This document shows positions 1-43,839 of a stretch of 64,000 nt of DNA, piece after piece. This DNA is from Squalus acanthias (Eukaryota), in assembly GCA_030390025.1 (NCBI GenBank), contig CM059430.1:3906001-3970000 (forward strand). The letters are read 5' to 3'. Both the position numbers and the translations under genes were made by a program. The stretch's first letter is position 1. Each line of letters opens with the position of its first letter. The notes beneath the pieces were generated by a model, which was not told where the DNA came from, ran no database searches, and saw nothing but the letters and a program-made list of their open reading frames with translations.

Positions 1-1957
1 TAATGCAAGAAGAAACAGAGCAGCGACAAAATGTGGGCACCTTGTGTTTGAGATCTGCAGCCATGCATTTGTAATTGGGCAGCTAGGAGGTTGATAGGGG
101 ACCAAAACACACAAAGCAAACCCAGCTCCAGAAATTACGTAAATAAATAGCATTTATTATTTAGTACAACAGCAGAACAATTGCAACGTTTCCCTATTTT
201 CTTAAGGCTACATTTAATTTTTGACAGCACACAGCAAAAATGCACAGGAAAATGCTTAAGTCTGCACAGGACCATTCTGGTACAAGACCAATGAAGTGTT
301 GGGAACCCTGAATTAAAGAAATAGAAATCTATGAGACTAGTACCTTACATCAGCACTTTCGATAGTCGGTACTAAAAGTACTGACAACAGGATGTACTGC
401 TTAATAATGTGCTATCAACCATCTTCTCCAATCTGCTGCCAACCTGCTTAAAGGATGATCACATCGTTTAAAATCATAGATTTTTATATAATGAGTGATT
501 AATGACTGCTTCCTCTCAAAAATGCCAATAGCAAATATGTGTTCTATTACAAAAAAGTTTTTTGTGTAATCCTTTTGTTTCAGACACCATGAGGCAGAAC
601 TGAAATCAGCAAATGCTATTCATATAAGGGCAATGGCTTCAAACGCCCCTGTTTGTTACAAAGAAAGGGTAACAATAGAGATCGTTCAATGTTTTTCTGT
701 TTGAAGCGATTAAATGCATTCCAAATAGTGCATATTGAGTAGCACTATACAATTATGCTTCTTTCCTGCCATCTCACTGCCATTAGGTATTGAATCCTTG
801 GGATTACCTATTAGTAATGGGTATGCAGTTTTATTGCTCATTTTGCACTCACAACAGACAAACAAAATCTTTAAATATCTAGATTTCTTCATCTGCAAAG
901 ATGATCCCACACATAGAAATGTCAATACTATATAGTTGTGGGCCATTCAGCAGTGAGAAGTTAAAAACTTCAGCCAGAGTCACGAAAATTTCCACACCCC
1001 GTCCCCGTCTAAAAATGTGATGATAGAGAAGGTTCTGGAACATGTTCAAAAAGCAGTAAAAATGTCAAGAGAAGAGTTCACAACTTAAAGGGGCCATTTT
1101 TTTAAAGCTGCAGCACTGGGGTAAATCTCAGGTCATGTTTTGGGGTATTCAATAAGACTGTGCCCGTTTACTGTTTAGTTGAGGTTTCTCAATCTGCGTT
1201 CTGTGCCCGTGCCTGGCATTTGGTCAGTTCTGGATTGTGGAAATAGGGTCACATTCAGTGAGTTGCGTTAGCGCCATGTATACATACACGAGAACATGCA
1301 AAGGGAAAAACTCTCAATACTTTCATTATCTTTGAATATACTGGTGGCCAGGAAGAGGAACTAACTTGCAAATCTAGATAAAAGTGAACAAAGTCTCTAC
1401 ATATGGACACAAAGGGCTGGATTTTTCCGGTGCTCAGAGGGCGGGTTTGGAGGCGGGTCCGCTGCCAAAATAGCAAAGATTGACAGCAGGTAGGAAACCC
1501 GCTGTCAACCCGCCTCCACGCGAGTCTCCCAGGTGTCGGGTCTGTCTGCGCAGAACTGACCTGACTCCAAGCGGCAAGGCAGACAATTTAGATCATTAAA
1601 TGGTTTGTTAAGAGCCAATTTAATGCGATTTTGAGCCTACCTTGCAATTTTACGTGCTCCCCCACGGGTTACCCGCTGCTCGGGGAACACGCCAGCTCAC
1701 CCTGTCGTGAGTTGAGTCTGCTTTGATTTATCTGATAAGTTGACAGCTGCAGAAGTGGTATAAAGGATACCATGTTGCAGATGTTCAGTTTCAGAAACTG
1801 TTGGTTACTGCATTTGTAAGACATATGGAGATTTCTTTAGCATGCAAGTGTTTAGAGCCAACTGTATATCCAGTGCCACCTCATTGGAACAGCCTCTCTC
1901 ACCACTGACAGATCGCTTCTGTCATCTCACCTGCAGCTGCCATCTATTGCAGCAACA

Positions 1958-2155
1958 TCGGTGCCCTTGAAAAAATCAGACCTTGGTCCTCTGAATCCTT
2001 CCACGATCAGCCCCAACACTAACATCACCAACCTCATCAGCAACCTTCTCCGCCATCACCTGATGCTGCACAGGACACAGGGCATCAACTCCTGACAACA
2101 TTGCTGCCCGGGAGGCCAGCGATGGCATCACCATGGCCAGGTTTACTTCACTTGA
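1958..2155 (+). pseudogene. Internally deleted Harbinger transposase remnant (N-terminus joined to C-terminus), copy 1
   Basis: Convergent with the Myb ORF, as in vertebrate Harbingers. Ends in NIAAREASDGITMARFTS, resembling Harbinger transposase C-termini; no DDE core visible. Homologous to 32560-32783. Confidence 0.45.
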
Positions 2156-2660
2156 CGCTGTTAACCCTGGCTGTCACATGATGTGCCAGATTGACACCAC
2201 CCCACACCAGCACCATAAAGCATTCCTTTAATGTCCAAGCCATTCCATTCACACTCATCACTATAGCGGGGGGTGGGTGGGGAAGTTATGTCCGAACATT
2301 CACTGGAACTCAGTAAGACACTTCTCAAGGTGCGCACAGATCTGTCCAATAAGGTGAAGTGTTGAAAATATCGATTTCACTGTATGACAACACTTTACCA
2401 GAAACTTCACATAAACATTGACTAAACCTCTCAAGTGCCTACCGTTGTGTGTTGTTAGTTGGTATGCTTGCAGTAGGATGAGGGTGAGTGTGAGGGGTGG
2501 CTAGTGAGATGGGGAAGTGATAATGTAGATAGGGAGGGGTGGGTGGAGTAAGTAAGGATGTGAGTAAGGATGTGCAGGAGTAGGGTGTGGAAGGCAGAGT
2601 GATGGGGATGCGATGAGTGGCACAGCAGGATGAGGTTGAGTATGGCATTGCAGTAACGCT

Positions 2661-2891
2661 TCCTGATCGACTGAGATCATTGAAAGGTTGGCGCCACTGC
2701 AGCCAGGGACCCCTGACGACATCGCTGCTTGTGTCCTCCTGTGCAATGTGCAACCAGACTGTGTTGATCTCCTGGGGAGGTCTCTTCCGCCCATGGGAAG
2801 GGAAGAGAATCTCCCTGCGTGCTGTGACTCCCTCCATAAGCATATGGAGGGAGTCATGCGTGAGCCTGGGTGCAGACGTGCACCTTTGTGC
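2661..2891 (-). pseudogene. Harbinger Myb/SANT-like (trihelix, NAIF1/MSANTD-type) DNA-binding domain remnant
   Basis: Translation APRLTHDSLHMLMEGVTARREILFPSHGRKRPPQEINTVWLHIAQEDTSSDVVRGPWLQWRQPFNDLSRSG fits the Harbinger ORF2 pattern (PRF..LL..V..R..LF...W..IA..V....R.W.QC.K.FNDL). It lies within ORF 2439..3014(-). Confidence 0.75.
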
Positions 2892-4764
2892 AGTGCTTGT
2901 CAGTGTTTGCAGCACCTCAATGCTGCAGAGCACTGACAGCACAACTGTCAAACTCAATGTGGCCGTGGTCCCTTTAAGGAAACCGGCCGATGACGCGTCA
3001 TCAAATGACGTCATCAGACCCGCTTCCTGTTAATTGGCCAGGAACCCCGCAGGGCGGGCTTAACAAGGCCAATCTACGGAAACTCTTTGAGAGAGCGGCT
3101 GCAGACGGGAGCGGGACCGGAAACCGCCAACCAGCTCTCCCGCCGCTGTCCTGCCTCCTCAGGGAAAATCCAACCCAAAATGTTTGCAGGTGCCGTTTCC
3201 AGCTTCCACACAACCAAAACCCTTCACCAATAAAACCTTTCAATGAATTAAGTGACAAATCAGTGTTCAAAAATAGCAGGTTCGTAGCTCATTGGTTAGT
3301 TCCCAGCTCATTTTCTAAAGTAACCCAGCAGACATCACGAGGAAATCACTTGTGAAATTTGGTCCAAATCCAAAAATTAATTTTCAACTGATTTCTAGAA
3401 GATAACTCGAAGCTTCACCACTTCAAAAAGGAACCTAGGGGCTCATGAAGGAAGTGCACTTACACAGTTTCTTTAAAAGTTGTTAATTGTTTTCAAATTT
3501 TAAAGTGACAAATTAGTGTTCAAGAACAGATAGATAGAGAAAACCAGAAGATAAATCCCACGCTATAACCAATGCGGTGGAATTAAAAACAAACCAACTT
3601 GTTTTATCTGTGTTGAACCATAATTGTCAGGCAAACATGTTTCTAACCCTTGACACTCCCTGAAGTATTCTTCATTTTAATGTGTTTTCATCAAATAAAA
3701 TGAAAACTCTGAAGTGAGCTGATATTTTGCTTACTCAAGAGATTTATTTAAATGAGGGGTTGGTTTATTAGTTTTGTACATTGTTTCATTGCTCTATCAA
3801 GGCAGTACCACAGCTAATCTGGTAGTTACTCTACGCTGAAGTGAAGTATGCAATACATCCATCTCATTAACACTTCCACCATACGATACTCATCCTACCA
3901 GACACATACCTAAGGAGGTCACAGGTGGCCTCTTTTGACATCAGACAGAGGCCTAACTCTCCTGCATGTCTCCTCAGGCAAGAATGGTGGACTGGATGGT
4001 GCTTTTTAAGTGGCCACACTGGTGTCCTTGATCTGGGTGCAATTGGATTTCAAAGAAGCAGCAATGAAAGTGCTTGGCTGCAAATCTTGGACTGGAAACA
4101 CTCCAGGTTCCGCAGTGACAAGGTACAGCCATTTATTAAATATTACAGTACTGTATATTCACAGGCTATATGAATGCAATGTGTATGTTTTGAAAGCTGG
4201 AGAGGAAAGTTGGGTTTTTCAATGTCACAATTCCACAAAAACAGCTTTGATCTCCACTTTTTTATTCATTTATGTTTAAATGAAAAATCCCAAGTTACCA
4301 CCTGTGTTTATAACCCTTCTGTTTGATGTCACTGAGCGGGGCCACACTATGCCGATTCACACCATGTGTTAAATTCCAGTTACACACTGCCATCTGCCAT
4401 TCTCTCACACCAGCCAATCCAACCTGCATTTGGTCATTACTCAAAGTTGCAATTGCTCAGTATTCTGCACAGAAACATTCCATACATAACCCGCACTGCA
4501 TTCAAAAGGTTCGGCTTTTTCTAAATAATATTTTTCATAATATTTTGATAGTTGCTATCTTAAAGGAAAGAAGCTGTGTCAACAACTAGAAGTTGGCATT
4601 AACAAAGATTTCAGACCATGTTCTCAATTACTTATAGCATTCAGTTAAATTACCCTCTTCTCCAGTTTTCTATCTCAAAGGGCATTCTTTTTGTTTATGT
4701 GCCACTTTTGGGGAAGCAACTAAATCTGCTTTCATCAGAAGAAATCTGATGACTTTCAGTGGAT

Positions 4765-6385
4765 GAGGCTTTTCAAAATTCGTGTCACAGAATTAATGGA
4801 AAAATAGCGAGCTGGATTAAAAATTGGTTTGGCAAGAGAAAACAGGATGTGATGATAAATGGATACAAGGTCTAGGTGGAGGTTGTTGATGATTGAAGTT
4901 GTCGAGCAGCCATTCAGCTCTACTGTTCTCAGTATTCATAAATAATACGGAGTAAGGTGCTTTTACTAAAATTATAAAATTGGCTGAACACAAGCAGCTA
5001 ATTTGGTCAGGTGATGAATATAAGCGACTTCAAAAACATTCAAAGGAATCTAAACAATTAAGCAAATAGGCTAAAGATGGATTTTAATGTAGATATATAA
5101 ATGTAAGGTAATGCATGCTGCAACAGGAAACATATGCCAAGTATACCAAATGAAAGGATGTCCATTAACAAAGGTGGAAAAAGAAAAGCACTTGGGTGTG
5201 ATTATTGATGATTCACTGAAAGTTTCCAGTCAATGGAAAGCTGTTACGAACAAGGTAATCAAGTATTGGGACGCATCTCAAGGGCATTTGATTACAAGTC
5301 CAAACAAATTATTTTAACTTGGTACAGATCATTGGTTGGACCAGATATGGAATATGTGTATGCAAATTTGAGTACCATGTGGCGAGTGTCTCACCTCCTG
5401 ACTCCCCAAAGCCTTTCCACCATCTACAAGGCACAAGTAAGGAGTGTGATGGAATACTCTCCACTTGCCTGGATGAGTGCAGCTCCAACAACACTCAAGA
5501 AGCTCGACACCATCCAGGACAAAGCAGCGCACTTGATTGGCACCCCATCCACCACCTTAAACATTCACTCCCTCCACCACCGGTGCACCGTGGCTGCAGT
5601 GTGTACCATCTACAAGATGCACTGCAGCAACACGCCAAGGCTTCTTCGGCAGCACCTCCCAAACCCGCGACCTCTTCCACCTAGAAGGACAAGGGCAGCA
5701 GGCGCATGGGAACACCATCACCTGCAAGTTCCCCTCCAAGTCACACATCATCCTGACTTGGAAGTATATCGCCGTTCCTTCATCGTCACTGGGTCAAAAA
5801 CCTGTAACTCCCTCCCTAACAGCACTGTGGGAGCACCTTCACCACACGGACTGCAGCGGCTCAAGGCGGCTCACCACCACCACCTTTTCGAGAGCAATTA
5901 GGGATGGGCAATAAATGCTGGCCTTGCCAGCGACGCCAACATCCCAGGAACGAATATTTAAAAAAAAATCTCTGTACTGATGTTTGTTCCGAGAAGAGTG
6001 ACACAAATTATTCCAGGACTTTATGGTTAAGCTATCAAGAAAAACCCGCAGAACTGAATTTGTTTCCATTGGAGAAAAGAGGATTGAAAGCCTGAATCTT
6101 GAAAAATGCTGTAAGGCACGGATCACATGAATGTAAGCAAGTTATTTGATTTGGACCACGAGTATAGAACTACAGTACACGTGTACAAATTTACAAACTT
6201 CAAACTACACTAGAGGTGAAAAGCATTTTCTCCCCACAGGGTAGGTGATATGAACTTCCATCAAAAGCAGTTAATATCAATTAACTCCTTTAAAAAAAAA
6301 AGCTGGATAAACATCTGGTTTGAAGGTTAAAGGCTCTGCATGTACCGAGGTGCTCCAATCCTCTATGGAACTTCGTAGTTCCTTT
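4765..6385 (+). mobile_element. Old, degraded CR1 LINE ORF2/3' fragment, interrupted by a younger LINE at 5378-5968
   Basis: Broken CR1 RT motifs: WIKNW..RKQ.V.ING (~4814), EKEKHLGVIIDDSLKVS, GNQVLGRISRAFDYKSKQIILTWYRSLVGPDMEY. It resumes at ~5990 with RRVTQIIPGL...LNLFPLEKRG. Confidence 0.75.
5378..5968 (+). mobile_element. 5'-truncated non-LTR retrotransposon 3' end (CR1/L2-superclade family 'A'), copy 1
   Basis: Encodes IYKAQVRSVMEYSPLAWMSAAPTTLKKLDTIQDKAAHLIG (RT C-terminal region). 3' UTR GGGATGGGCAATAAATGCTGGCCTTGCCAGCG followed by an A-tail. Near-identical copies at 13285 and 39120. Confidence 0.85.
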
Positions 6386-6386
6386 G

Positions 6387-6455
6387 TTCCACAGGTGACA
6401 TTTTCATGGTCCAAGTTCCTTTGCTACTTGGACCATGAAAATGTCACCTGTGGAA
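6387..6455. repeat. Perfect inverted repeat: 30-bp arms, 9-nt loop
   Basis: TTCCACAGGTGACATTTTCATGGTCCAAGT (6387-6416), loop TCCTTTGCT, ACTTGGACCATGAAAATGTCACCTGTGGAA (6426-6455). Confidence 0.97.
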
Positions 6456-6489: not shown

Positions 6490-7022
6490 TTACATAAGAC
6501 GTAGGAGCAGGAGTAGGTCATTTGGCCCCTCGAGCCTGCTCCGCCATTCAATAAGATCATGGCTGATCTGATCTTGGCCTCAACTCCACTTCCCTGCCCG
6601 CTCCCCATAACCCTTGACTCCCTTATCGTTCAAAAATCTGTCTAACTCCACCTTAAATATATTCAATGACCCAGCCTCCACAGCTCTCTGGGGAAGAAAA
6701 TTCCAAAGATTCACAACCCTCTGAGAGAAGAAATTCCTCCTCATTTCCGATTTAAAAGGGTGCCCCCTTATTCTGAAATGATAATCCCCTAGTTTTAGAT
6801 TCCCCCACGAGGGGAAACATCCTCTCTGCATCTACCCTGTCGAGCCCCTTCAGAATCTTATATATTTCAATAAGATCCCCTCTCATTCTTCTAAACTTCA
6901 ATGAGTATAGGCCCAACCTGCTCAACCTTTCTTCATAAGACAACCCCTTCATCTCCGGAATCAACCTCGTGAACCTTCTTGGAACTGCCTCCAATGCAAG
7001 TATATCCTTCCTTAAATTTAGA
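6490..7022 (-). mobile_element. CR1 LINE 3' end (HER1-like shark CR1)
   Basis: ORFs 6752..7090 and 6580..6831 give [39 protein letters not shown]...MRRNFFSQRVVNLWN, with the typical CR1 3' UTR. Confidence 0.92.
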
Positions 7023-7204
7023 CTGATATTCTGAAGTATTCCATGATTATCTTTGGAGGATATGGAGAAATATTGCAAAACTTCCCTCAAGTATAGACCA
7101 GATTATATGGTTTGTCGAATGAACAGGTTTGTTAAGCATAATAGGTTTCGTGGGCCACTCCTTCTTAAAATGTTTATACCAGGTTGTTCCTGGCTGTTGT
7201 AGAC

Positions 7205-13284: not shown

Positions 13285-13892
13285 AAGCAGCCCGCTTGAT
13301 TAGTACCCCATCCACCACCCTAAACATTCACTCCCTCCACCACCGGCGCACCGTGGCTGCAGTGTGTACCATCGACAAGATGCACTGCAGCAACTCACCA
13401 AGGCCTCTTCGGCAGCACCTCCCAAACCCGCCACCTCTTCCACCTAGAAGGACAAGGGCAGCAGGTGCATGGGAACACCACCACCTCCAAGTTCCCCTCC
13501 AAGTCACACACCATCCTGACTTGGAAATATATCGCCGATCACAGAATCACAGAATCCCCACAGTGCAGATAGAGGCCATTTCGGCCCATCGAGCCTGCAC
13601 CGACACATATCCCACCCTATCCCCGTAACCCCACGTATTTAATCCCCCTAACACTAAGGGTCAATTTATCATAGCCAAATCAACCTAACCTGCACATCTT
13701 TGGACTTCATCGTCGCTGGGTCAAAATCCTGGAACTCCCTCCCTAATAGCACTGTGGGAGTACCATCACCACACGGACTGCAGCGGTTCAAGAAGGCGGC
13801 TCGCCACCACTTTCTCAAGGGCAATTAGCGATGGGCAATAAATGCTGGCCTTGCCAACGATGCCCATATCCCATAAACGAATAAAAAAAAAA
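13285..13892 (+). mobile_element. LINE family 'A' 3' end, copy 2, interrupted by a SINE
   Basis: Near-identical to 5522-5968 and ends in a poly-A run. Split at ATATCGCCG|...|TTCATCGTCG by the insert at 13538-13705. Confidence 0.88.
13538..13705 (-). mobile_element. 5'-truncated HE1-type (V-SINE) elasmobranch SINE
   Basis: The minus strand reads GTCCAAAGATGTGCAGGTTAGGTTGATTTGGCTATGATAAATTGACCCTTAGTGT...GATGGGCCGAAATGGCCTCT...GATTCTGTGATTCTGTGAT: a V-domain-like body plus a CR1-derived tail. Confidence 0.8.
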
Positions 13893-14458
13893 GTTATGCT
13901 AACCCGATATAAAACACTAGTTTGGCTCCAGCTGGAGTATTATGTCCAATTCTGGGCACCACACTTTAGGAAGGACATGAAGGCTTTGGAGAGGGTACAG
14001 AAGAGATTTACTAGAATGGTTCCAGGGATGAGGGATTGCCGTTACATGGATAGACTGGAGAAGCTGGGGTTGTTCTCCTTAGAGCAGAGAAGGCGAAGAG
14101 GAGATTTGATGGAAGTGTTTAAAATCATGAAGGGTTTAGATAGAATAAATAAAGAGAAACTGTTTCCAATGGCTGAACAGTCGGTAATCAGAGGACACAG
14201 ATTTAAGGGGATTGGCAAAAGAACCAGAGGCGACATGAGGAAAAACTTTTTTACACAACGGGTGGTTAGGATTTGGAATGCACTGCCTGATAGGGTGATG
14301 GATAGAGATTCAATAATTGCCCTCAAAAAGGAAATTGCAGGGATATGGGGAAAGAGCGGGGGAGTGGGACTAACTGGATTGCTCTTCGAAAGAGCTGGCG
14401 CAGACTCGATGAACCGAATGGCCTCCTTCTGTGCTGTACTATTCTGTGATTCTATGAT
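13893..14458 (+). mobile_element. CR1 LINE 3' end
   Basis: YKTLVWLQLEYYVQFWAPHFRKDMKALERVQKRFTRMVPG...MRKNFFTQRVVRIWNALP, followed by the CTGTGATTCTATGA tail. Confidence 0.92.
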
Positions 14459-16137
14459 AAGGCACTTCATAGGCTGGTCAATATTAGATTGCATACAGAG
14501 TGGCTTTTCCTGGTGGACTTCCCACTAATTTGATATTAATTCCATTAGATAATGAGCTTTTATTTGGAATTATAGTGCAAGATGGACTTCAAATACTTTC
14601 CTTAAACTCCAGGACACAAATTCCAGTTTCATACCGGTTCCTATGTTCATATATGGAAACCGCTTCTGAGTCAACCTGAATAATATTTAGTTTTTCTTCT
14701 TAATTTTAACTAAAATAACAGTCACAAAAACACGGGGACTTATCACACACACAAGTATGACTTCTAAGCCAGGCTGGAGAATGTAGAACATAAACTCATA
14801 TCACAACTACTTTGAAACAGCGCGAATTGATTAAGGCAAAAAGCAGCTGAACCATACAGGCCTCGACTGTCCCACGTTCAGCAGATGAAGAGAGGGGAGA
14901 AAACTGCTACTAAGTAAAAATAAACACATTTTGGTGAAAGAAAACACACACGTTTCATTCCTCGGTGGGAAACTGGAGCATCGTAAAATGCTTCTGCCAG
15001 CAGAAAATAACCTGAAGCAAAAGGTTTTACAAGTCCCAAAGTTTTATAGGCTGAATATACTGATCTGAAGGTAATCAAAGCCACATTCTGACAGACTGAC
15101 CATGAAGCTTTTTTTATTTAAAAAGAACACCTTTTTAAGATAACTTGCACCATCTTCTGTGAGCGTGTCTGACAGTACAGTCCGCACCATTTTATAAACC
15201 TACTGTTTTACGTTTTTAAAAAAATGATATTTGGTCATGAACTAGTGGTTCTAATCAAGAATATAAATTGGTTTCTAACCACATTTTTATCTATGCCAGG
15301 CATTTGGATTGAGCCTGAGATTAATGCAAGCCACCATCAAAAGTCCAAAGCCTTGATCATTTTCATCGCTCAGCTACTTCAAAGATAGTAACTGCTGGAT
15401 CCCTTTAATTTGGGTTTTCTCAGCCAGATTTCAGAAATATCAAAAAAAATCTTTCCTTTTCTTTTTTTTTTATTGTCTTTTCATTTAATTTTTATATATA
15501 TCGTTATTGCCTTTAGTTCTGAAGGACTCAAAAACTGTGTCACAGAATGAGAATCTTTTTTAATATCTCAACTTAATGAGACTTTTTCAGTGTTACTTTG
15601 AATTCAGATCATAATTAGGTAGAAACATTACAAAATTTGTAGTTCGGCCCATGCATATTTTATACTTTAAAATTTTAATAAATGCTTTCAACTGCAATTA
15701 TATTTGCATCATTGATCTTAAAGGTGTAGATTGTTACTATACATTCTGTTATATGAAACACAGCTGTGGTACATTTAGATTACTTTTTTCTCTTCTCCTC
15801 CAACAAGGAATTGGGCATATGGGCTCCTCCCAGGCCTCTGGCCGTGTTGCTCTGGAAGTGGCAGGTTTTGCCTGACCACTGACCTGGTTCGCACTTTCTC
15901 CCATTCACCCTCCCTCTGGGGAAGCACCTCCCCCCACCCCATTCCTCCCACTTAGCCTTACATGAGACTGACATAATTCAGGAAACCAGAAGGTTACTTA
16001 AAAGATCCCAGAAACTGTTAACATTTATACTTCTTTGCATGGAAAATACATAAATATCGTTCAGAGGCTGCAAGTTGCAAAGTTACAGGAGTCCTTTTTT
16101 TTTTAAATCATAAAACTAAAAATATGCATACATGACA

Positions 16138-20586: not shown

Positions 20587-20994
20587 ATAATCTAATTAGG
20601 AGTTGCGTGCGTGTGAAAAAATACTGCAGCGCACAGTGAGACGCGGAGCCCTGGATTTGGTTTATAAATGCGCTGAACCGCCACTCTGTACAACTACTTC
20701 CTGTCAATCACAGGGCAAGGAGTTGCTGCTGCAGAGTGGATATCAGCGATGTTTCTCGACAAGATCCCATTCTCCAGAATTAGAGAGTGAATCAACTGAA
20801 TCGATCACCTTTGAAACAAAGTTTTTTTTTTGCAGGCTATCGCACTTTCATGATAAACTTTAAAACAGTAACAGTTATTTGTGGTGCATGTCGGCCAGTT
20901 CAATGAAATAGATACTGTTCCCTTTCAGAGGAAAGGGTGAGATGCACTTTCCTCCCTTCACACCCAAGCCACCAAACAGAAGCACAGTCACCCC

Positions 20995-21140
20995 CTGCAG
21001 CAAGCAAACAGGGTCACGATCATCTACTGCAGCAAGCAAACAGGGTCACGATCATCTACTGCAGCAAGCAAACAGGGTCACGATCATCTACTGCAGCAAG
21101 CAAAGAGGGTCACGATCATCTACTGCAGCAAGCAAAGAGG
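20995..21140. repeat. 32-bp minisatellite x4.5 (CTGCAGCAAGCAAACAGGGTCACGATCATCTA)
   Basis: Units start at 20995, 21027, 21059 and 21091, with a partial unit at 21123. Confidence 0.95.
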
Positions 21141-24335: not shown

Positions 24336-24842
24336 TATATACTTTTTAAACCAGGTTTGTCATTTTTAATTTTGCTTTTCCTGGTGCGCAAGTTTAAGAT
24401 CGGTGGAAAAGAAAAGTGGACCAATACATGTGAGCTGGTATTCGACAGTCCACACTCGACATTCTTTCGGTCTTATTCATTCATAGACAACCAAACCCAT
24501 CGATGTAACAGTCCTGTTAATATAGTTATATTTAATGCTCAGATGCCACACCTTACCCAGTCCAGCTTGTTTTGTCAAATTCTTCCAACATCTGCTCTTT
24601 CAGCTCTCACAACTAGAAAGTCAAAACAACTACTGGGCCTGAACTGGACTGTGTGACAAGGCACTAAAAATATAGAACAAGAAAGGGACCAGTTTCTTGA
24701 CTTATAAAACTGCACCATAAATCCCTAAGTGCCCCAATGGCTCTGTGACTAATGCCAGTGCCCAGTGTGATACTAAGCCACACAGGCTATGATCAGACCC
24801 TGCTCTCGGGCAAGATAGCTGATGCTCCCCACAACAACCCTG

Positions 24843-24988
24843 AGAAGTCGCACAACACCAGGTTATAGTCCAACAGTTTTATTTGAAATCACGAGCTTTC
24901 GGAGCGGCTGCTCCTTCGTCAGGTGAAGAACTTTACCTGACGAAGGAGCAGCAGCTCCCCAGTCCAACACCGGCATCTCCGCATCATG
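24843..24988. mobile_element. Penelope-like element pLTR remnant (inverted arrangement) with 12-bp TSD
   Basis: Exact TSD ACAACAACCCTG at 24831-24842 and 24989-25000. Internal inverted segments CTGCTCCTTCGTCAGGT / ACCTGACGAAGGAGCAG, plus a hammerhead core typical of PLE pLTRs. Confidence 0.8.
24889..24926 (-). ncRNA. Minimal type I hammerhead ribozyme motif
   Basis: Minus-strand RNA UCAC-CUGACGA-A-GGAGC-AGCC-GCUCC-GAAAG-CUC-GUGA has the conserved CUGANGA and GAAA boxes, a 5-bp stem II, stem I UCAC/GUGA, an NUH triplet CUC, and palindromic AGCU in place of stem III. Confidence 0.75.
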
Positions 24989-26349
24989 ACAACAACCCTG
25001 GCAGATACCATAATTAGTCTCTGTCTATGAGGATAGAAAGGGGGGGGGGGGGGATCTAAGCCATGGTTCTTGCTCCTATCCAGTCCCTGAGCCTGTGGAG
25101 CATTTATGGATTTATTTAAGGCTGCAGTTTTACAGGTAAAGAAACTGGTCCCTATCTTGTACCTCCATGTCTCTGCCAAAATCAGTCTGTAACAGATCAC
25201 TGACAAAGTGCGTGATGGTGCTGGATTGGGAATGGGGGGGGAGGGGTAGGAGGAGGGAATTACAATTAACAGAAGAAGAGAGATGTTTCCTCTGTAATTA
25301 ACAACCTGCCAACTGAATCACGGGAAAACGCGCCTTTGATACATCAGATTTTTGAGAATGTATTTTTATTTGGGGTGGTTAATGAAAGAGAATAAAAGGC
25401 ATCCTCCTGCTTTTTTGTTAAAAGAATTTCACCCTCAGGGTGACTTGGCCTTAAATGTTTCCAACCTCCCTCAATCTCTAGGAAGAAGCGCGCACCTTCT
25501 CTTCAAATAGCTCAAAGCAGATTGGTGAATGTGGCCGACCGCCACTTTGAAGGGCACTTTTTTTCCCCGAAAAAAATAATAATTCTTTGTGGTCTATATT
25601 GTGATAAAGCAAAAAAACATACTGCAGTTAATTCCTAGAATATGCCGGCACCAGTATCTCAATACGTAATACTTCTTTATTATATTAATATATTCAGAGA
25701 AAAATCTAGCTACTGGGAAATACCACATGGATACTTTTGTATGTATTAGAGCACATCTTATCAAAAGTATGATAAATCAGGCAGAATTCTGCTTCTAACC
25801 TTCGCAAGTGTGTATTGACCACATATTGTAGTGTTCTAGGAAAAGCTGATAGCACAACCTTGCGTTCAAAAAGCCACATCTTTGTAAACACATTTACCAT
25901 TGTCAGCAAGCTTCTCTTTATTGTACAAATGCTACCGAGTACTGAGGAGAATTGCCCTAAGGATTACTACGACACTAATCAAATGGGTATTTGTATCTTA
26001 CCAGGTCTGAAATTGATCAAAACGATCAATCGCAGATCAGTTCTACAAGGCCTCATTAGCTTTGTGCAAACATAGTTAACAAGTGCTTTTCAACCAGTTC
26101 CAGAACCCAGACGGAAATCATTCAATTGAGTTGATTTTCCCCGATATTGAAAAGTTGTTGTACTGTGCTGGCATGGAGACAGTTTAAAAATAGGGAAACA
26201 AATGTAACTGTTCTCAATTTTTGTTAACAATTATCAGCCCCAGTCAGATTATTTTGATACGTTTAGACAAAGAGTGTGCACTAATCAGTGGATTAAACTG
26301 CATTTCTCAGGTACTGGAGTATCTAAACTAATTCAGAATTAGAGCATTA

Positions 26350-26790: not shown

Positions 26791-27625
26791 AGGCTAAAGA
26801 GCCTTAATTTCTCCTGTCTATCACCGTATCTCAATCTTTTGATACCAAGGATGAACCTTGTGGCTCTTGTTCTGCATTGCCTCCTTGGCTTGAATGTTTC
26901 CTTTTATGTTTTGTGTTCCGCTTTGGCCACCAATTCTCAAGGTACAGACTGACCAGGGTACTATACAGTTTTGGCATGACATCTTCTGACTTATACCCAA
27001 CTGATCTAGCAATACAATTCAGCATTCTGTTCACTGTTTATTGCTGCTCCACCGCGATCTGACATGTTAAGTGCCGTATCTACTATCAGATACCTTTCTA
27101 CTTCCTCTTTAGCTATTTTTACACCATCCATAATATACTTAAATACCCAGTTTCCTTCCAATGTCTTGCACTTGTCTGTAATGAATTTCATCTGCCACTG
27201 ATTTGCCCATTTGCAGATTTTATCTAATTATTTTTGTAGTTTCCTTACTGATTCCACCAACATGACTGCCCTCTAGCTTAGTAACATCTGCAAATGTGAC
27301 CAATTTGCATTAGGTTTCCAAATCCAATATAGATTAGCAACAGTAGGCACAGTCCACTCAGGTAGGCACAGTCCACTCAGGTAGGCACAGTCCACTCAGG
27401 TAGGCACAGTCCACTCAGGTAGGCACAGTCCACTCAGGTAGGCACAGTCCACTCAGGTAGGCACAGTCCACTCAGTCCTTCCCCACTCCTGCTATCATTC
27501 GAACAAGACCCCACTGCCTTCTTTCCTTCAGGCAATTCCTCACCAAGTTCAACAGTTTACCTTGAATTCCCACTGCTTTCAGTTTTAGTAGCTGCATTTT
27601 GTCGGTAACTTTACTGAATGGTTTG
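26791..27625 (-). mobile_element. Old degraded CR1 ORF2 fragment
   Basis: Minus-strand peptides KFADV-like (~27285), MKFITDKCKTL, NRMLNCIARSVGYKSEDVMPKLYSTLV, RQEKLRLFSL. Confidence 0.75.
27343..27475. repeat. 19-bp minisatellite x7 (GTAGGCACAGTCCACTCAG)
   Basis: Seven exact units, embedded in the CR1 relic. Confidence 0.97.
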
Positions 27626-30620: not shown

Positions 30621-32559
30621 CACAATTTACAATCGTCATCTGAACACTCAGCGTACGTTACTGTTTAAAATTATTTTTGAACTATCAGCTGTCTTTTATT
30701 TAGCAAATAAAAACCAAGTTGATTTCTCATCATTGCGACATATTTCATGTGTTGGTTTGACACTGTTGTTTGCAGTTGAAAGTGGTGCTATAGGACAGAA
30801 GGCATTACCGTTATATAATGTAGGTCCTGAAGGTGTATTAAGTCAAATGATCAACCTTTTAGCGTTGCAGAGTTAGCTTCACAATAGATTGCTAGAAAAC
30901 AAATTATCTTGATATTATAATGTAGTAATGGACACAAAACACTCTGCCAGATACTACATATACTGGTACGAGATTAATATTGCTAATTCTGGAATCACAG
31001 CCATGGGATTGCTAGAAATTGCCAGCGGCTATAACCCAGGGGTGCTGTTTAGCTCAAGTTTTACAACATCATTGAGGCTCCCAACTGTACTATAGGACTG
31101 CAAATTCTCAGCCAAAACTACAGAGTACAGAAGGGAGCTAAGAGTGGGTACTGTAAAAATCACAGGGAAAATCTTAAATCAGACTTTAGAAATGTGTTAG
31201 AAGGAACTTGCAACAGCTTAAGCAGAAAACAAACAAACATTTCAACAATTTCATTCTAATAGGGCAGTCAACATTTCCAGTGATTTAGATGTCGATGCTG
31301 CCAGTATCTTTGCGAATTTCTATCTTCTCATCCACAGAATTTACTGCTGATTAGACCTTTACTGTCGGGGTATGATGTCATCGCAATCCCTCAATTGCCC
31401 TATTTGGGAGTTTAGGACATGCCCCATTTACAGAGAAACGTACATGGATACATAGATGTGTGGAGTTGGCATCCTGGTTGTCAATGTCATCTCTTTCTGT
31501 CAGTTGGCTGCAAGAGTGGGGAAATATCCCCTCACATTGGGCCAGAACTTCCTATCAAAATGATGGTGAGGCTAATGGCACTCGCTGTTATTTATGCGTA
31601 AAGGCTACAGCAACTTCAGGCGAGGGGCAGATGTGCGATTAAACCCAAATATCCAAACGTTGCTGTCCAAGTTGCGCCACTCTGCCGTTAGCTCCGCGAA
31701 AGCAGCATCTCGCTTTCTGGCTCACTATTCATTGAGCGGCGTGAAGTTGTATTTGTGTGGTAGACACAAACTAAACTCGCGACAGAAAGTTAAATCTTGT
31801 CATTTCAAACACAAGTCCCCTTTTAACGACGTGATAGGTGTTAATTACTGCCAATCAACCTCGCTGGCACTGAAATTAATGATTAGAAGTGTGGAATCTC
31901 ATCCTTCAGGTTTTAATTGATGTTGGAGATGTTTAAAATGTCAAATTAAATTTTTTTAAACAATTTACTTTTCCTTTCTGTCTCTTTTTTACCTCTTAAT
32001 CTAATCTTTCTTTCCCTCTCTTTGGGCTGGATTTTACGGGGGGGTCAGCGGGCGTGATCGGTGGTGGGTCGGGTAGGAAAGTGTTTTTTTCCCCCCAACG
32101 GGTCAGGACCCCGCTGTGAACTCGCTGCCACGCGCCTTTACCAAATGTTGGGTCCGTCAGCGCTGAGCAGACCCAACACGCAGCGGCGGGGGAGGCAATT
32201 AAAATCATTAGTGGCTTGTTTACAGCCACTTATCAATGGTTTTTTCCCAGCTTTTTGGATTTGACAGGTCGCCCACCAGTTTCCCACTGTGCCTAGACCT
32301 CGTCTGTGAAGCTGAGGCGGGAGGTCAGTAGCCATTGAATCAGCTGATGAGTTGACAGCTTCAAATGTCAACTCAAAGCTCCCAGCTGATTGAGATATGT
32401 TCCCTTAACCACTAGCTTCTCTAAACTGCTTTTGCACTACAGATTCAGGATGCTGCAAGTCTTTACACAAGTCTCCATCCAGTCTGATCTCATTACCTCT
32501 CCCACCATTGACAGATCTCTTCTGTCATCTCTACTTCACCTGCCATCTATTCCATCAAC

Positions 32560-32783
32560 ATGGGTGCCCTTGAAACGCTCTCACTTTGGTCCTCAGAATC
32601 CCACCACGATCAGCCACAACACCAGCAGTACCAGGCGCATGAGGCACACCAGCAGCACCAACAACCACACCAACCTTCTCCGCAATCAACTGATGCTGCA
32701 CAGGACACAGGGCATCAGCACCCAACCACATTGCTGCCCGGGACGCCAGGGATGGCCTCACCATGGCCAGATTTACTTCACTT
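32560..32783 (+). pseudogene. Internally deleted Harbinger transposase remnant, copy 2
   Basis: ATG start MGALETLSLWSSESHHDQPQHQQ... joined out of frame to HIAARDARDGLTMARFTS. Confidence 0.45.
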
Positions 32784-33289
32784 GACGCTGTACACCCTGG
32801 CTGCCACATGATGCGCCAGGTTGGCACCACCCCACACCAACACCATAAAGCATCCCTACAATGATCAAGCCATTCCTTTCACACTCATCACCATTGCAGG
32901 GGGTAACGTTATGTCTCACCATTCACTGCAACTCACCAAATCACTTCCAAATGTGCACACAAATCTGTCCAAGAACGCAAAGTGTTGAAAATAAAGGTTT
33001 CAATGTTTGACAGCATATTAACAGAAACTTTACATGAACATTGCCTAAAACACCCAAGTGCCTACCCTTGTGTGTTGTTAGTTGGTATGATTGCACTAGG
33101 ATGAGGGCGCGTGTGAGGAGTGGCTAATGAGATGGGGATGTGATAATATAGATAGAGAGGGATGGATGGAGGTGCAAGGTAAGTTGGTGTGAGTAAGGTT
33201 GTGCAGGAGTAGGGTAGGGCAGGCAGAGTGATGGGGATGTGATGAGAGGCACAGCAGGCTGAAGGTGAGTGTGGCTTTGTACTAACGTT

Positions 33290-33483
33290 TCGTGATCTAC
33301 TGAAATCATTGAAACATTTGCAGCACTGCACCCAGGTCCTCCTGACGACATCTCTGCTTGTGACCTCCTCTGCAATGTGCAACCGTCGGAAGGGAAGAGA
33401 ACCTCTCTGTGTGCTGTGACTCCCTCCATAAGCATATGGAGGGAGTCATGGGAGAGCCTGGGTGCAGCCGTGCACCTCTGTGC
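33290..33483 (-). pseudogene. Harbinger Myb/SANT remnant, frameshifted
   Basis: AAPRLSHDSLHMLMEGVTAHREVLFPSDG, then a 37-bp deletion relative to copy 1, then LHIAEEVTSRDVVRRTWVQCCKCFNDFSR. Confidence 0.75.
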
Positions 33484-34161
33484 AGTGCTTGTCAGTGTTT
33501 GCAGCACCTCAATGCTGTAGAACACTGACAGCACCAATGTCAAAATAAAGTTGGCCATGGTCCCTTTAAGGAAACCGGCTGCTGACGCATCATCAAATGA
33601 CGTCACCAGACCCGCTTCCTCTAATTGGCCGGCAAACGCGCTGGGCAGGCTTAACAAGCCCAATCAGGGGAAATTCATTTCAGAGGCTGGGATGGAGACA
33701 GCAGTGGGGTCGGGACCTGCCAACGACATCGCCCGCCCCGGACCCGCTGAGGTTCGTAAAATCGCGGCCTTCATTTCTCTTTCTGTACTTGATTTGACAT
33801 TTAATTCACCCACTCTAAATTACACTTCCTTCTCAGTCCTTGCGCTGTTAATTTCACAATCCTTCAATCTGATTGGTTAAGGAGACACACAGTTGCTTGC
33901 CCTGTTCACTCAAAACCCAGATGCCCGGTTTCCCTCGCTGCGCTGTTATCAGCTCGCACTTTCAGCAACTTGCCATGCAAAAAAATTTAAAAACTTACAC
34001 ATGCAAGGGTATTTCTAACTAACGGCAGACGCCATTAGCTGCCCTGCTGCACCAAATTAAGGCCCATTGTGTTATCAGGCTGCCTGCAGTCGGTACTCAA
34101 GAATATATATAGAAATCTACCTATTTATAAACACAAGCTACTAAATATCTTAAACTCTCTT

Positions 34162-36415: not shown

Positions 36416-37885
36416 TCTTTGGGGAAGTCTGTAATCCCAATTTCTGCTTAACTTCCACAAATTGAAAAAGATCTCATTAGGGATCCCTGTACCTTCTGAA
36501 AGAGGTTGCTGATGGTGGGACTACTGGACAGATTTCAGATACAGGAAAGTATCCTTTCCACCATAGAGTAACATTTACACAGGTCACCTTTGTATAATTC
36601 AGATAGTTGAAGATATACACATTGTTTGAAAGTAATCACCTAAGGCTACTCCTTTGAATCTGATTCTGGGATTGTGCTGTCAATGACATTCAGTAAACAT
36701 TTCTTCCTCCTTTATATTGCTGTGTTTGACAGTGAATTTAGTTGGTCCATTCATTTATCCAGAGGAACCATAACTTCTAATTCTGAACTGGAAATTGATC
36801 AGACCTCTCAGTTTTTGGAAGAAATCCTAATCTGAAGCTCCAACATTTTAATAGGTTGATAGGTACAGGCAGTCATTAAAAGGACTTTCAGAAAGCCCAA
36901 AAGAGGCACTCAAGGGGATTTGTGGTCCTGAAGATTTCTCTTCAGGGAATTAATTGTATGAATAAACTCTACATCAGATGAACTCCATTTTAGCAACGGA
37001 GAAGGTGTCTGAATGATAAAACGCTCACGTCAAAGTAACAGATTTGGATTCCAAGAAAGCAGAGGGTTGTCTTACTAAAGATGATCTTAAAAAGAACTCA
37101 ATTTATCAATCTAATAACAAAAAATCATCTTCAAAATACTTCTTTGGATAGTAGGCTATCAATCACAAAGTGCTGCGTGATAAATCACAGGGCTGAGTGT
37201 TTGTGCATTGGTGACTGGAGGGGTCCGTGCTTGAACTGCTATATTGTGACCTAGTCCAGAATTCCAGATGTCACTCGGGGTTGGGCAACTTTCAGCATCG
37301 TCATAGAGGGCAATTAATCTCTCTGAAAGAAAACGTCAGAAATCCAGCTGAGGATTGCAGGACCCTCCACACTCTTCAAACGTGTAAATTAAACCACAAA
37401 CTTCATTCAACAGAAAGCACTGGGCCCATTCATCATCATGAAACAATGTTTAAATCCTCCATCTGCCAAGGTGCTGCTTATTTGAATCAGGAACACAACA
37501 AATGAACAAAAACGTTGATGTCCACCAAGATCACAATGGAATGGGGGGGGGGGGAGCTACCTGTTTGACTGATTTCTGAGTTTATTATCCATGGACCATA
37601 CAGTAAATTAATACAGAAGACAGAGAACAAGCAACTGGAAACATTCTTTCAAAACGCTTGCGATGTCATAAACAATTCAACCACGCCAAGTCTTTGTTTG
37701 AGGTATTTGTGACTATTGCAGCGCTTCATATGAGAATCAAGAATCACTAACAGAACCACTGGTTACCCTCCCACTTGTTCAGATCTTAACTGTGCTGTGA
37801 AGATTAATTGTGGATGTCTCATATCGATGAGAATTGTTTGGATAGATATAAATCAACTAATACAAGTTATACTGGTTTTGTACTC

Positions 37886-38445
37886 CCGAAGCTGGAATAC
37901 TGTGTGCAGTTCTGGTCGCCACACTATAGGAAGGATGTGATTGCATTAGAGAGGGTGCAGAGGAGATTCACCAGGATGTTACCTGGGCTGGAGCGCTTCT
38001 GCTATGAAGAGAGACTGGACAGGCTGGGGTTGTTTTCCTTAGAGCAGAGAAGGCTGAGGGGGGACCTGATTGAGGTGTACAAAATTATGAGGGGCATAGA
38101 TAGGATAGCTAGAAAGGAACTTTTCCCCTTAGTAGAGGGGTCAATAACCAGGGGGCATAGTTTCAAGGTAAGGGGCAGCAGGTTTAGAGGGGATTTGAGG
38201 AAAAACTTTTTCACCCAGAGGGTGGTTGGAATCTGGAACTCACTGCCTGAAAGGGTGGTAGAGGCAGGAACCCTCAACATTCAAGAAGCATTTAGATGAG
38301 CACTTGAAACGCCATAGCATACAAGGCTACGGACCAAGTGCTGGAAAATGGGATTAGAATAGACAGGGCTTGATGGCCGGCGCGGACACGATGGTCCGAA
38401 GGGCCTCTTTCTGTGCTGTATAACTCTATGACTCTATCTATGACT
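37886..38445 (+). mobile_element. CR1 LINE 3' end (young)
   Basis: [34 protein letters not shown]...FFTQRVVGIWNSLPERVVEAGTL, followed by a CTCTATGA-repeat tail. Confidence 0.93.
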
Positions 38446-39119
38446 AAGCCCAACTCAGTGAGTCTCCCGGCAATTTAGACACATTTCAACCACTTTTAGA
38501 CATTGCGTGATGTTGCTTGGGTTCAAAACAAGTTTGGATTAAATCTGGTGTAAACAGGAAAACACATTCCAGAGGTCAAAAGGAAAAGGTGATTTGCATC
38601 AAGGTACTGAGGACAGTGAAAGCTGAAAGGTGTATTCATGTCAATCAGGGGCAAATTTGATGATTGCGATCACTTGCAAGCGAACACTGCAACAGAAATC
38701 ATGGAAATTATTCAAGAAATCTACATTACATCCTCTCCTCTGTCAAACTGAACCCATGTTTTATAAATAGTGTCTTGCCTGAGGAGAAATTCCACCAGAA
38801 ATTTCAGAGACCTGTGGTGACATTAGAACTTTGGAGATGAAGCGCACTGAGAATGCGCAGCAGTCAGCAGTGATTTCCTCACTTTTATTGTAGGAGTACT
38901 TAGAAGTGCTGGGGCTGCTCGTGGCTTCACTGTCTAGCTCTTCACAACTCTAAACAACTGTGAAATATCAATGGAACAGACTGCAGCACCACTGCTTCTA
39001 ACATTGCACACATTGTTTTTCAACTCCTGCTCTAATTAAGAAAATAATATCAGAGGCGTGCTGTCATTTCACCTGTCAGATATTTGTTATCTTCCCAATG
39101 AACATCACTGCTGTTGCTG

Positions 39120-39567
39120 TTTTTTTTATTCGCTTATGGGATCTTGGCGTCGCTGGCAAGGCCAGCATTTATTGCCCATCCCTAGTTGCCCTGGAGAAGG
39201 TGGTGGTGAGCCACTTTCTTGAACCGCTGCAGTCCGTGTGGTGAAGGTACTCCCACAGTGCTGTTAGGGAGGGAGTTCCAGGATTTTGACCCAGCGACGA
39301 TGAAGGATCGACGATATACTTCTAAGTCAGGATGGTGTGTGACTTGGAGGGGAACTTGGAGCTGGTGGTGTTCCCATGCACCTGCTGCCCTTGTCCTTCT
39401 AGGTGGAAGAGGTCGTGGGTTTGGGAGGTGCTGCCGAAGAAGCCTTGGCGAGTTGCTGCAGTGCATCTTGTAGATGGTACACACTGCAGCCACGGTGCGC
39501 CGGTGGTGGAGGGAGTGAATGTTTAAGGTGGTGGATGGGGTGTCAATCAAGCGGGCTGCTTTGTCCT
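39120..39567 (-). mobile_element. LINE family 'A' 3' end, copy 3
   Basis: Reverse complement of 5516-5968, with poly-T at 39120. Confidence 0.9.
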
Positions 39568-39691
39568 TGTTGTTGAGAAGTTCTGACACTGCAATGGTGT
39601 CGAGGCCGTAAAGGTGTGTCAGTACAAGAAACACTGAGTAAACTGGTCTCAGTGTTTTAACGCTTATTAAACTAAAGTAAATTGTTTAGGA

Positions 39692-40051: not shown

Positions 40052-40515
40052 GGGCTCAATATTAACCCTCTCACGACGGGCTGGAGAGGGTCGGTTAAAC
40101 ATATTAAAACGGGGAACACGTCCCCAAACTGCCACCGGGTTTTGTGTTGAGCGAGTGTCCCATCTTAACATATTTAAATCAGGCTCCCACAGTGCAATCG
40201 GGAGCCTGATTTAAATTTAACAGTTGCCACGCGGGTTTCCCAGGGCGTGGGAAACCCGGCAACAAAAGGGAGGTGGTAGCTGCCAGCTCAAGAAGGTAAG
40301 TGCTTTTTACAGCACTCCTTGTGGATCAGGAGGAGTAGGAGTGCTCCCCCCCCCCCACCCCAGCCCCTCAAGGAAGCCTTGGGCCTCCCGTCTGTCGATC
40401 GCGGCCTCTCTCTCCACCCTGCCGCAATGTCCAACTCCGCCCGCAGCCGGCCTGCCTATCAATTTGGCCAGTTGCCAGCTAGGAAACGGGAAAAAAAAAG
40501 AGATCCAGCCGTTAA
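40052..40515. mobile_element. GC-rich Harbinger-like MITE fragment
   Basis: Starts GGGCTCAATATT. Contains a perfect 17-bp internal inverted repeat (40172-40216) and the GGAGGAGTAGGAGTGCTCC motif shared with 7205-7918. Confidence 0.55.
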
Positions 40516-43584: not shown

Positions 43585-43839
43585 GTGAGACGTGTGCAGT
43601 AGCTCAGGTGAGACGTGTGCAGTAGCCCAGGTGAGACGTGTGCAGTAGCCCAGGTGAGACGTGTGCAGTAGCCCAGGTGAGACGTGTGCAGTAGCCCAGG
43701 TGAGACGTGTGCAGTAGCCCAGGTGAGACGTGTGCAGTAGCCCAGGTGAGACGTGTGCAGTAGCCCAGGTGAGACGTGTGCAGTAGCCCAGGTGAGACGT
43801 GTGCAGTAGCCCAGGTGAGACGTGTGCAGTAGCCCAGGT
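43585..43839. repeat. 23-bp minisatellite x11 (GTGAGACGTGTGCAGTAGCCCAG)
   Basis: 11 units at 43585-43837; only the first carries a C>T variant. Confidence 0.97.

Follow-up and report, generated by a model that had tools for sequence, protein, structure and literature searches.

The window, by which we mean the whole 64-kb stretch of DNA analysed here, contains an insert of 146 bp lying between exact 12-bp direct repeats (24831-24842 and 24989-25000), as was seen when the window was compared with itself. One contig of a related species holds the corresponding site empty, skipping exactly 158 bases (24830 to 24989) and keeping a single 12-mer whose 12 letters fit either side of the skip, with flanks that diverge from those of the window at about 5% of letters. 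Because the related species has a true empty site, the 12-bp duplication is not a chance repeat, and because it lacks the insert, the insertion must be younger than the split of the two species. The exact 12-bp target-site duplication of the original prediction is thereby borne out, and a genome search for paralogues of the host DNA with the site empty gave two weak partial matches only.

The insert shows the hallmarks of a Penelope-like element (PLE), namely an inverted 5' copy, a one-sided tail, and the target-site duplication. Its parts (Table 1) are numbered here with +1 as the A two bases before stem I of the hammerhead and with the start codon at +128. Read from left to right, they are the duplication, an inverted arm from +88 to +2, an extra A, a direct arm from +1 to +28, a 72-bp deletion, the stretch from +101 to +130, and the duplication again. 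The inverted arm (24843..24928) is identical over 86 nt to three other family copies that were fetched, and the window copy must therefore be young. The two arms mismatch at 2 of 28 positions, both of which are family polymorphisms, and they form an inverted repeat of 28 nt (24901-24928/24931-24958) with 93% complementarity.

Table 1. Features of the PLE insert, in window coordinates
Feature	Position	Strand	Remarks
Target-site duplication, left copy	24831..24842	+	2-nt microhomology: final 2 bases shared with the parent element
Inverted arm	24843..24928	-	pLTR/5' UTR; inferred PLE mRNA positions about +2 to +88; without tail
Minimal type I hammerhead, complete	24889..24926	-	4-bp stem I, extra A, 5-bp stem II, AGCU palindrome; stem III absent
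28-bp hairpin of both arms	24901..24958	.	On either strand, predicted trap for the ribozyme's 5' half
Untemplated base A at the head-to-head junction	24929	.	Templated by neither arm; most family copies have G
Direct arm, 5' piece	24930..24958	+	Inferred mRNA positions +1 to +28; half of a hammerhead, stops after stem II
Private 72-bp deletion junction (+29 to +100)	24957..24960	+	2-nt microhomology
PLE 'tail'	24959..24988	+	Ends in the parent-ORF start codon, 24986-24988
Target-site duplication, right copy	24989..25000	+	Exact repeat of the left copy; empty site in the related species

The original prediction had placed a second hammerhead copy at 24935-24958 and had it lose its GAAA by deletion. 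This deletion is real, but the copy starts at 24930, and the 72 bp that are gone comprise not just the GAAA but also the cleavage site, the 3' strand of stem I, and most of the 5' UTR. By the family plan, the insert would measure about 218 bp without the deletion, which is within the common family range. The deletion junction has one match in the 3.7-Gb genome when searched genome-wide. In a separate search, biased to window-like junctions, with 40 of 2,111 candidates scored, and kept out of all frequencies, the window alone gave a full-query match. As for the wording "severely truncated PLE", it holds for the size of the insert but not for its inner ends, which are not random and lie at the likely 5' end of the mRNA.

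The insertion is itself enclosed by a decayed and older inverted repeat (24677-24750 / 25082-25160, about 78% over 79 nt), which is also present in the related species, is nearly single-copy in this genome, and is possibly an old non-autonomous DNA transposon. The window also holds dispersed repeats with LINE-like frames (1498-3144 and 32110-33737; 5508-5968, 13285-13893 and 39117-39575; 6502-7102, 13842-14528 and 37808-38299), one dispersed-repeat pair of 1.7 kb at 76% identity, tandem arrays (20967-21140, 27343-27475 and 43585-43839), and short palindromes without relation to the PLE (6387-6455, 2825-2856 and 40172-40216).

The parent element and its hammerhead

A 40-nt piece taken from the tail region has 7,926 exact genome matches, and the family must have at least that many copies. 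We found a parent locus (L061) with the structure pLTR-ORF-pLTR and a unit of 3,120 bp, in which an 892-aa ORF, open throughout, is flanked by 775-bp direct repeats that are 98.8% identical and that the window arms match at 96-100%. The ORF matched RVT_1 in Pfam (E 1.3e-8) and gave no GIY-YIG match there; compared by eye with the definitions of PMC8557442, it shows a DKG motif and, in VVY..C...C..WYIG, a probable GIY-YIG-type nuclease with two inner cysteines, preceded by a C-x4-C-x2-C linker. A CX2-5CxxC linker between RT and nuclease is common to Neptune and Nematis (PMC8557442), and the linker sequence marks the parent as a likely member of one of these two clades; solved structures gave no match to the parent protein. 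Judged from these sequence features, the window insert belongs to an endonuclease-bearing PLE, having an ORF with RT and C-terminal GIY-YIG domains and partial-tandem pLTRs with a hammerhead. The PLE origin first proposed for it is thus supported, since the parent element was found and the arms match its pLTRs.

The original prediction of a complete minimal hammerhead without stem III on the minus strand agrees with the sequence, to which an unpaired A at 24915 is to be added. On this strand, stem I pairs 24926-24923 with 24892-24889, CUGACGA occupies 24922-24916 just before the unpaired A, the 5 bp of stem II join 24914-24910 to 24905-24901, and GAAA follows at 24900-24897, with the palindromic AGCU replacing stem III. 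C17 falls at 24893, and its placement gives a predicted cut at 24893/24892, the same position as first proposed (~24893). The whole motif order of PLE minimal type I hammerheads (CUGANGA, extra base, stem II, GAAA, palindrome, NUH, stem I) is present. Those described for metazoan PLEs in PMC4209133 likewise have a short stem I, an unpaired base before stem II that is described as conserved, no stem III, and a palindrome at 15.2/16.2, and opposite-strand pairs of them 100-700 bp apart were already noted in that paper; the window hammerhead differs from these motifs in its stem II of 5 bp and in its partner, which is adjacent, half deleted, and predicted to be inhibitory. Rfam models, the covariance-type check that had been suggested, did not match the motif, with no hammerhead at gathering score in the whole 64-kb window and none at E up to 10 in 24600-25250, where the 5 weak matches were all far below gathering scores.

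The fold of the inverted repeat has a z of -6.2, and none of 200 shuffles was equally stable. For the minus strand, the prediction is a hairpin of -64 kcal/mol vs. -40.7 with the hammerhead enforced, and the predicted probability of the hammerhead fold is about 1e-16 with the inverted segment and 0.13 without it; on a minus-strand transcript, the complementary segment precedes the hammerhead and is predicted to make the 28-bp hairpin with it. The inverted segment is thus predicted to trap the window ribozyme, and this fold prediction supports the earlier suggestion that the inverted copy switches it off. Two isolated units gave no dimer co-fold in the minimum-energy prediction, a method that does not model the core.

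One more possibility, first raised for an active ribozyme, is that the window copy is active or regulated and cuts a minus-strand host transcript. This would be favoured by the intact core, with C at position 17 where the family majority has U (72/77 readable direct arms), and by the fold probability predicted without the inverted segment. However, the trapped fold is favoured in the model by about 22 kcal/mol, with the trapping strand being made first, and single minimal hammerheads showed no cleavage in vitro and their dimers only little (PMC4209133). A second hammerhead copy was found nowhere else in the 64-kb window, and no host exon came out of a Pfam scan of 150 of the 389 stop-free frames of at least 55 aa, a scan that short exons or a large intron could escape and that gave two weak matches, below cut-off; the insertion is, besides, lineage-specific. 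We therefore regard such cutting as scarcely credible, given that the motif depends on a partner, that the fold prediction has it trapped, and that no host exon was found where it lies. An effect of the window copy on a host transcript is unlikely, and the copy itself probably does nothing. Across the family, the cleavage triplet is CUU in 72 of the 77 readable direct arms and CUC, as in the window, in 4 of them; CUU is a poor hammerhead cleavage triplet, and for this reason the dominant family allele may cleave weakly.

Ends of the family copies and how they may arise

We sampled 90 copies from the first 100 listed matches to the tail piece, one match lying inside another locus and the last nine being left out. 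The sample covers the first 39 Mb of one contig and is unbiased for 5' structure, and it was selected for an intact tail, so that the 3' ends of the direct arms are biased in it. An adjacent inverted arm was present in 68 of the 90 copies, and the end statistics of inverted arms use 65 of these, three complex or very short arms being set aside. The outer ends of the direct arms lie at +124 to +147 in 90/90 copies, and those of the inverted arms at +83..+101 in 61/65, with a tail in none of them; target-site duplications of 9-16 bp are found in 65/90 copies (mode 12 bp, 71% A+T).

The inner ends cluster at one place, given that 37 direct arms start at +1..+10 and 6 at -10..-1 (P 1.6e-6), and that 29 inverted arms end at +1..+10 and 4 at -10..-1 (P 1e-5). 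A TATA-like hexamer stands exactly at -30 in 60 of the 76 copies having parent-like upstream DNA. The base before a direct arm starting at +1 is G in 14/14 cases (13/13 without the alignment artefact L125), compared with 21/76 where the arm starts elsewhere, whereas the parent base before +1 is C or T, and G with parent-like upstream DNA was seen in none of the fetched copies. In the genome as a whole, 3,121 occurrences of the 17-mer that begins at +1 have G in front of them and 366 have A. Of the loci whose arms both lie at +1/+2, the first 68 have G before +1 on at least one strand in 52 cases and on both arms in 3, with the proviso that in 17 of these 52 the G could be the parental -1 base read from the opposite strand; likewise, in about half of the 13 cases the opposite arm ends in this very G, and a parental -1 base could account for the frequent T-G junction. 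The junction base of the window copy is A, unlike the family-majority G.

An extra G at complete 5' ends of L1 insertions has been read as a copied cap (PMC11702581), and we infer from the junction sequences that a capped mRNA starts at +1 and that cDNA synthesis running off this end, not random truncation, produced the short arms. For PLEs, we found no description of a cap-derived extra G in the literature searched, with subscription papers and Repbase outside its reach. A near-complete ORF copy (L062:2849-5528, L039) has its direct arm exactly from +1, preceded by G, together with an inverted arm with a tail, and has the look of a full-length cDNA that extends from the inferred cap.

The inner ends at +1 might instead reflect RT stalling or RNA processing at the base of the hammerhead, the stub then being an ordinary 5'-truncated and 5'-inverted copy. 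Indeed, +1 lies two bases before stem I, and an intron in D. virilis ends at the 5' end of helix I (PMC4209133). However, there is no splice acceptor AG before +1, the TATA at -30 stands with an initiator-like context, as noted for a rotifer pLTR (PMC3846280), and a stall leaves the excess of G unexplained. At the ribozyme cut itself (+35..+39) the inner ends do not pile up, with 2/90 direct and 0/65 inverted arms ending there. We hold stalling or processing to be improbable to a high degree. Ribozyme-cut RNA as the main template was also rejected on this lack of a pile-up, which is in line, by analogy, with the uncut RNA that serves as template in vitro.

So many short copies could also come from a non-autonomous ribozyme mini-element that propagates itself, in the manner of a retrozyme or MITE, and measures either 146 bp or, if the window copy is a deletion derivative, about 218 bp. 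Both arms start at +1 or later in 45 of the 90, as short two-armed copies, 44 of which measure 135-241 bp; both arms reach +1/+2 at roughly 1,200 loci (1,786 matches, at 68 loci per 100 listed); and three loci share one inner junction. The stubs, however, have no internal TATA box, their hammerheads are head to head and not in tandem as in retrozymes (bioRxiv 10.64898/2026.07.22.740005), and they lack the first 172 nt of the ORF, which the anole protein needs on its RNA (PMC11167929). Moreover, the 72-bp deletion junction is unique in the genome, so that the search for further copies of the 146-bp structure, proposed as a check on a distinct family, speaks against one, and all 45 short copies differ in their four end positions, without the shared internal junctions and ends expected of such a family. 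The 146-bp form of the tiny non-autonomous retroelement first suggested is thus largely refuted, and the mini-element as a whole seems to us more doubtful still than stalling or processing. The three loci with a common inner junction (L101, L102 and L109) have an inverted arm that stops at +20, a two-base filler with G as its last base, and a direct arm from +1; their outer ends and arm alleles differ despite the junction, which we read as recurrence, partly unexplained.

More has to be said about the self-priming proposed for rotifer PLEs, in which one cDNA or antisense template folds at the palindrome and copies itself into the inverted arm, the junction palindromes being read in that way in PMC3846280. 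In its favour, the two arms agree in subfamily markers in 49 of 51 pairs (25.7 expected) and in 34 of 34 pairs, and in L068 and L102 they even have rare variants in common. On the other hand, the inverted arm extends further upstream than the direct arm by at least 5 nt in 21 of 65 copies, reaching up to 2.4 kb from +1, while in those copies the tail sits on the direct arm alone; each arm thus holds sequence absent from its partner, and neither can be a fold-back copy of the other. The outer end of the inverted arm is also fixed at +83..+101, spacer-less perfect palindromes and junctions with G on both arms occur, the window arms differ at two polymorphic sites and those of L003 at 4/5 markers, and the G before +1 is indicative of a capped sense template. 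Self-priming is in our judgement unlikely, if less so than the two preceding readings, and the family sequences speak rather for capped sense RNA being primed twice, once from each target strand. The 21/65 copies with mutually exclusive arms fit the two-strand reaction of the anole protein in vitro (PMC11167929) and argue against the antisense self-priming of PMC3846280.

Two separate RNAs are not required for this, since the arms nearly always share subfamily markers, and one RNA, or a later conversion, is a possible source of both. Within subfamilies, loop alleles agree in 25 of 34 pairs vs. 20.7 expected (P 0.04). Of 38 pairs, 9 differ in loop II. A two-RNA origin as the rule was rejected, with the marker agreement between arms being far above chance and mixed arms a minority.

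Most likely, then, the window insert is a single young copy of the front end of a hammerhead-bearing PLE, doubled head to head, with a private 72-bp deletion, and the likely dead-end product of two primings off the 5' end of a capped mRNA. In this course of events, the pLTR promoter, with its TATA at -30, would initiate transcription at +1, and the capped RNA would carry the hammerhead from +3 to +40 and its start codon at +128. The GIY-YIG nuclease would cut the two target strands about 12 nt apart. One target end would prime at about +129, which gives the tail, and the other at about +90, without a tail; with priming in the 5'-most copy of these sites, both cDNAs would be short, would reach the cap, and would often gain a C opposite it. 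The cDNA ends would then be joined through 0-2 nt of microhomology or filler into a palindrome of 200-230 bp, of which the window copy would have lost 72 bp, either during insertion or afterwards. Having neither TATA box nor ORF, such a stub should neither transcribe nor mobilise itself. The inner junction common to L101, L102 and L109 is a point against the two primings, explicable by a re-copied palindrome, although their direct-arm alleles differ.

We further incline, with less assurance than for the window copy itself, to the general proposal that PLE inverted repeats are two reverse transcriptions, one per cut strand, from two fixed internal sites of a capped sense RNA to its 5' end, leaving thousands of stubs in the genome whose palindrome centre bears the cap as an extra G, and that some of them (the window copy and L003) join two RNAs, so that a particle could carry two templates. 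If true, this would settle the question of a sense or antisense template left open in PMC3846280 and would make the uncut hammerhead RNA the template in vivo.

Known systems and the interest of the family

The shape of the stub is already described, given that the inverted 5' copy, the one-sided tail, the duplication, the TATA with initiator, and the opposite-strand hammerhead pairs are all in print. PLE insertion units (PMC8557442; Pen2a_Av, PMC3846280; D. virilis Penelope, PMC2377424) resemble the window family in their inverted 5' copy, a 30-40 bp one-sided tail, and a target-site duplication, as well as in a pLTR with TATA and initiator and a start codon at the pLTR end. The window stub differs from these units in being without an ORF, in having both arms from the likely transcription start, and in its 146 bp after a private deletion. 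How PLE inverted repeats and tails form is left open in PMC3846280 and PMC8557442.

The closest biochemical comparison is PAc, a Poseidon element of the green anole and thus of a clade other than that of the window family, whose protein, in vitro, cleaves both target strands and extends them, taking uncut RNA as template and starting reverse transcription at two internal sites that delimit the tail (PMC11167929), much as we infer for the window family. The PAc sites are about 110 nt or more inside the ORF and its hammerhead overlaps the start codon, whereas the window family would have one site near +90 and the other at the start codon; the window parent, unlike PAc, has the Neptune/Nematis linker. 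In LINE-1 twin priming (PMC11702581), both target ends prime, the duplication is preserved, and an extra G stands at complete 5' ends, as we read it in the window family; the difference is that L1 cDNAs cover adjacent parts of the RNA, while those of the window family overlap almost wholly and so give a palindrome. Non-LTR retrozymes (bioRxiv 10.64898/2026.07.22.740005) are like the window insert in being non-coding, PLE-derived, and provided with a type I hammerhead, but they are head-to-tail tandems able to circularise, whereas the insert is head to head and single, with one arm incomplete.

The window copy is an ordinary member of its PLE family with a private deletion, and the evidence for a capped template and double priming at the level of the family is the more interesting part, above all for retroelement specialists. 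Several thousand short, young, and independently made junctions let the start site, the cap, the priming sites, and the nick spacing be read from the genome, and the predictions drawn from them are testable in an existing in vitro system. The several thousand 85-bp hairpins, if read through, could also yield small RNAs against the family, which is speculation on our part. As a further observation, four of the 30 copies with longer tails (L032, L036, L037 and L057), from a search whose query favoured ends like theirs, have a 3' flank that enters the same LINE-frame stretch at the same base; this LINE frame is presumably CR1-like, and the common flank arose either at a preferred target sharing microhomology or within a chimeric subfamily.
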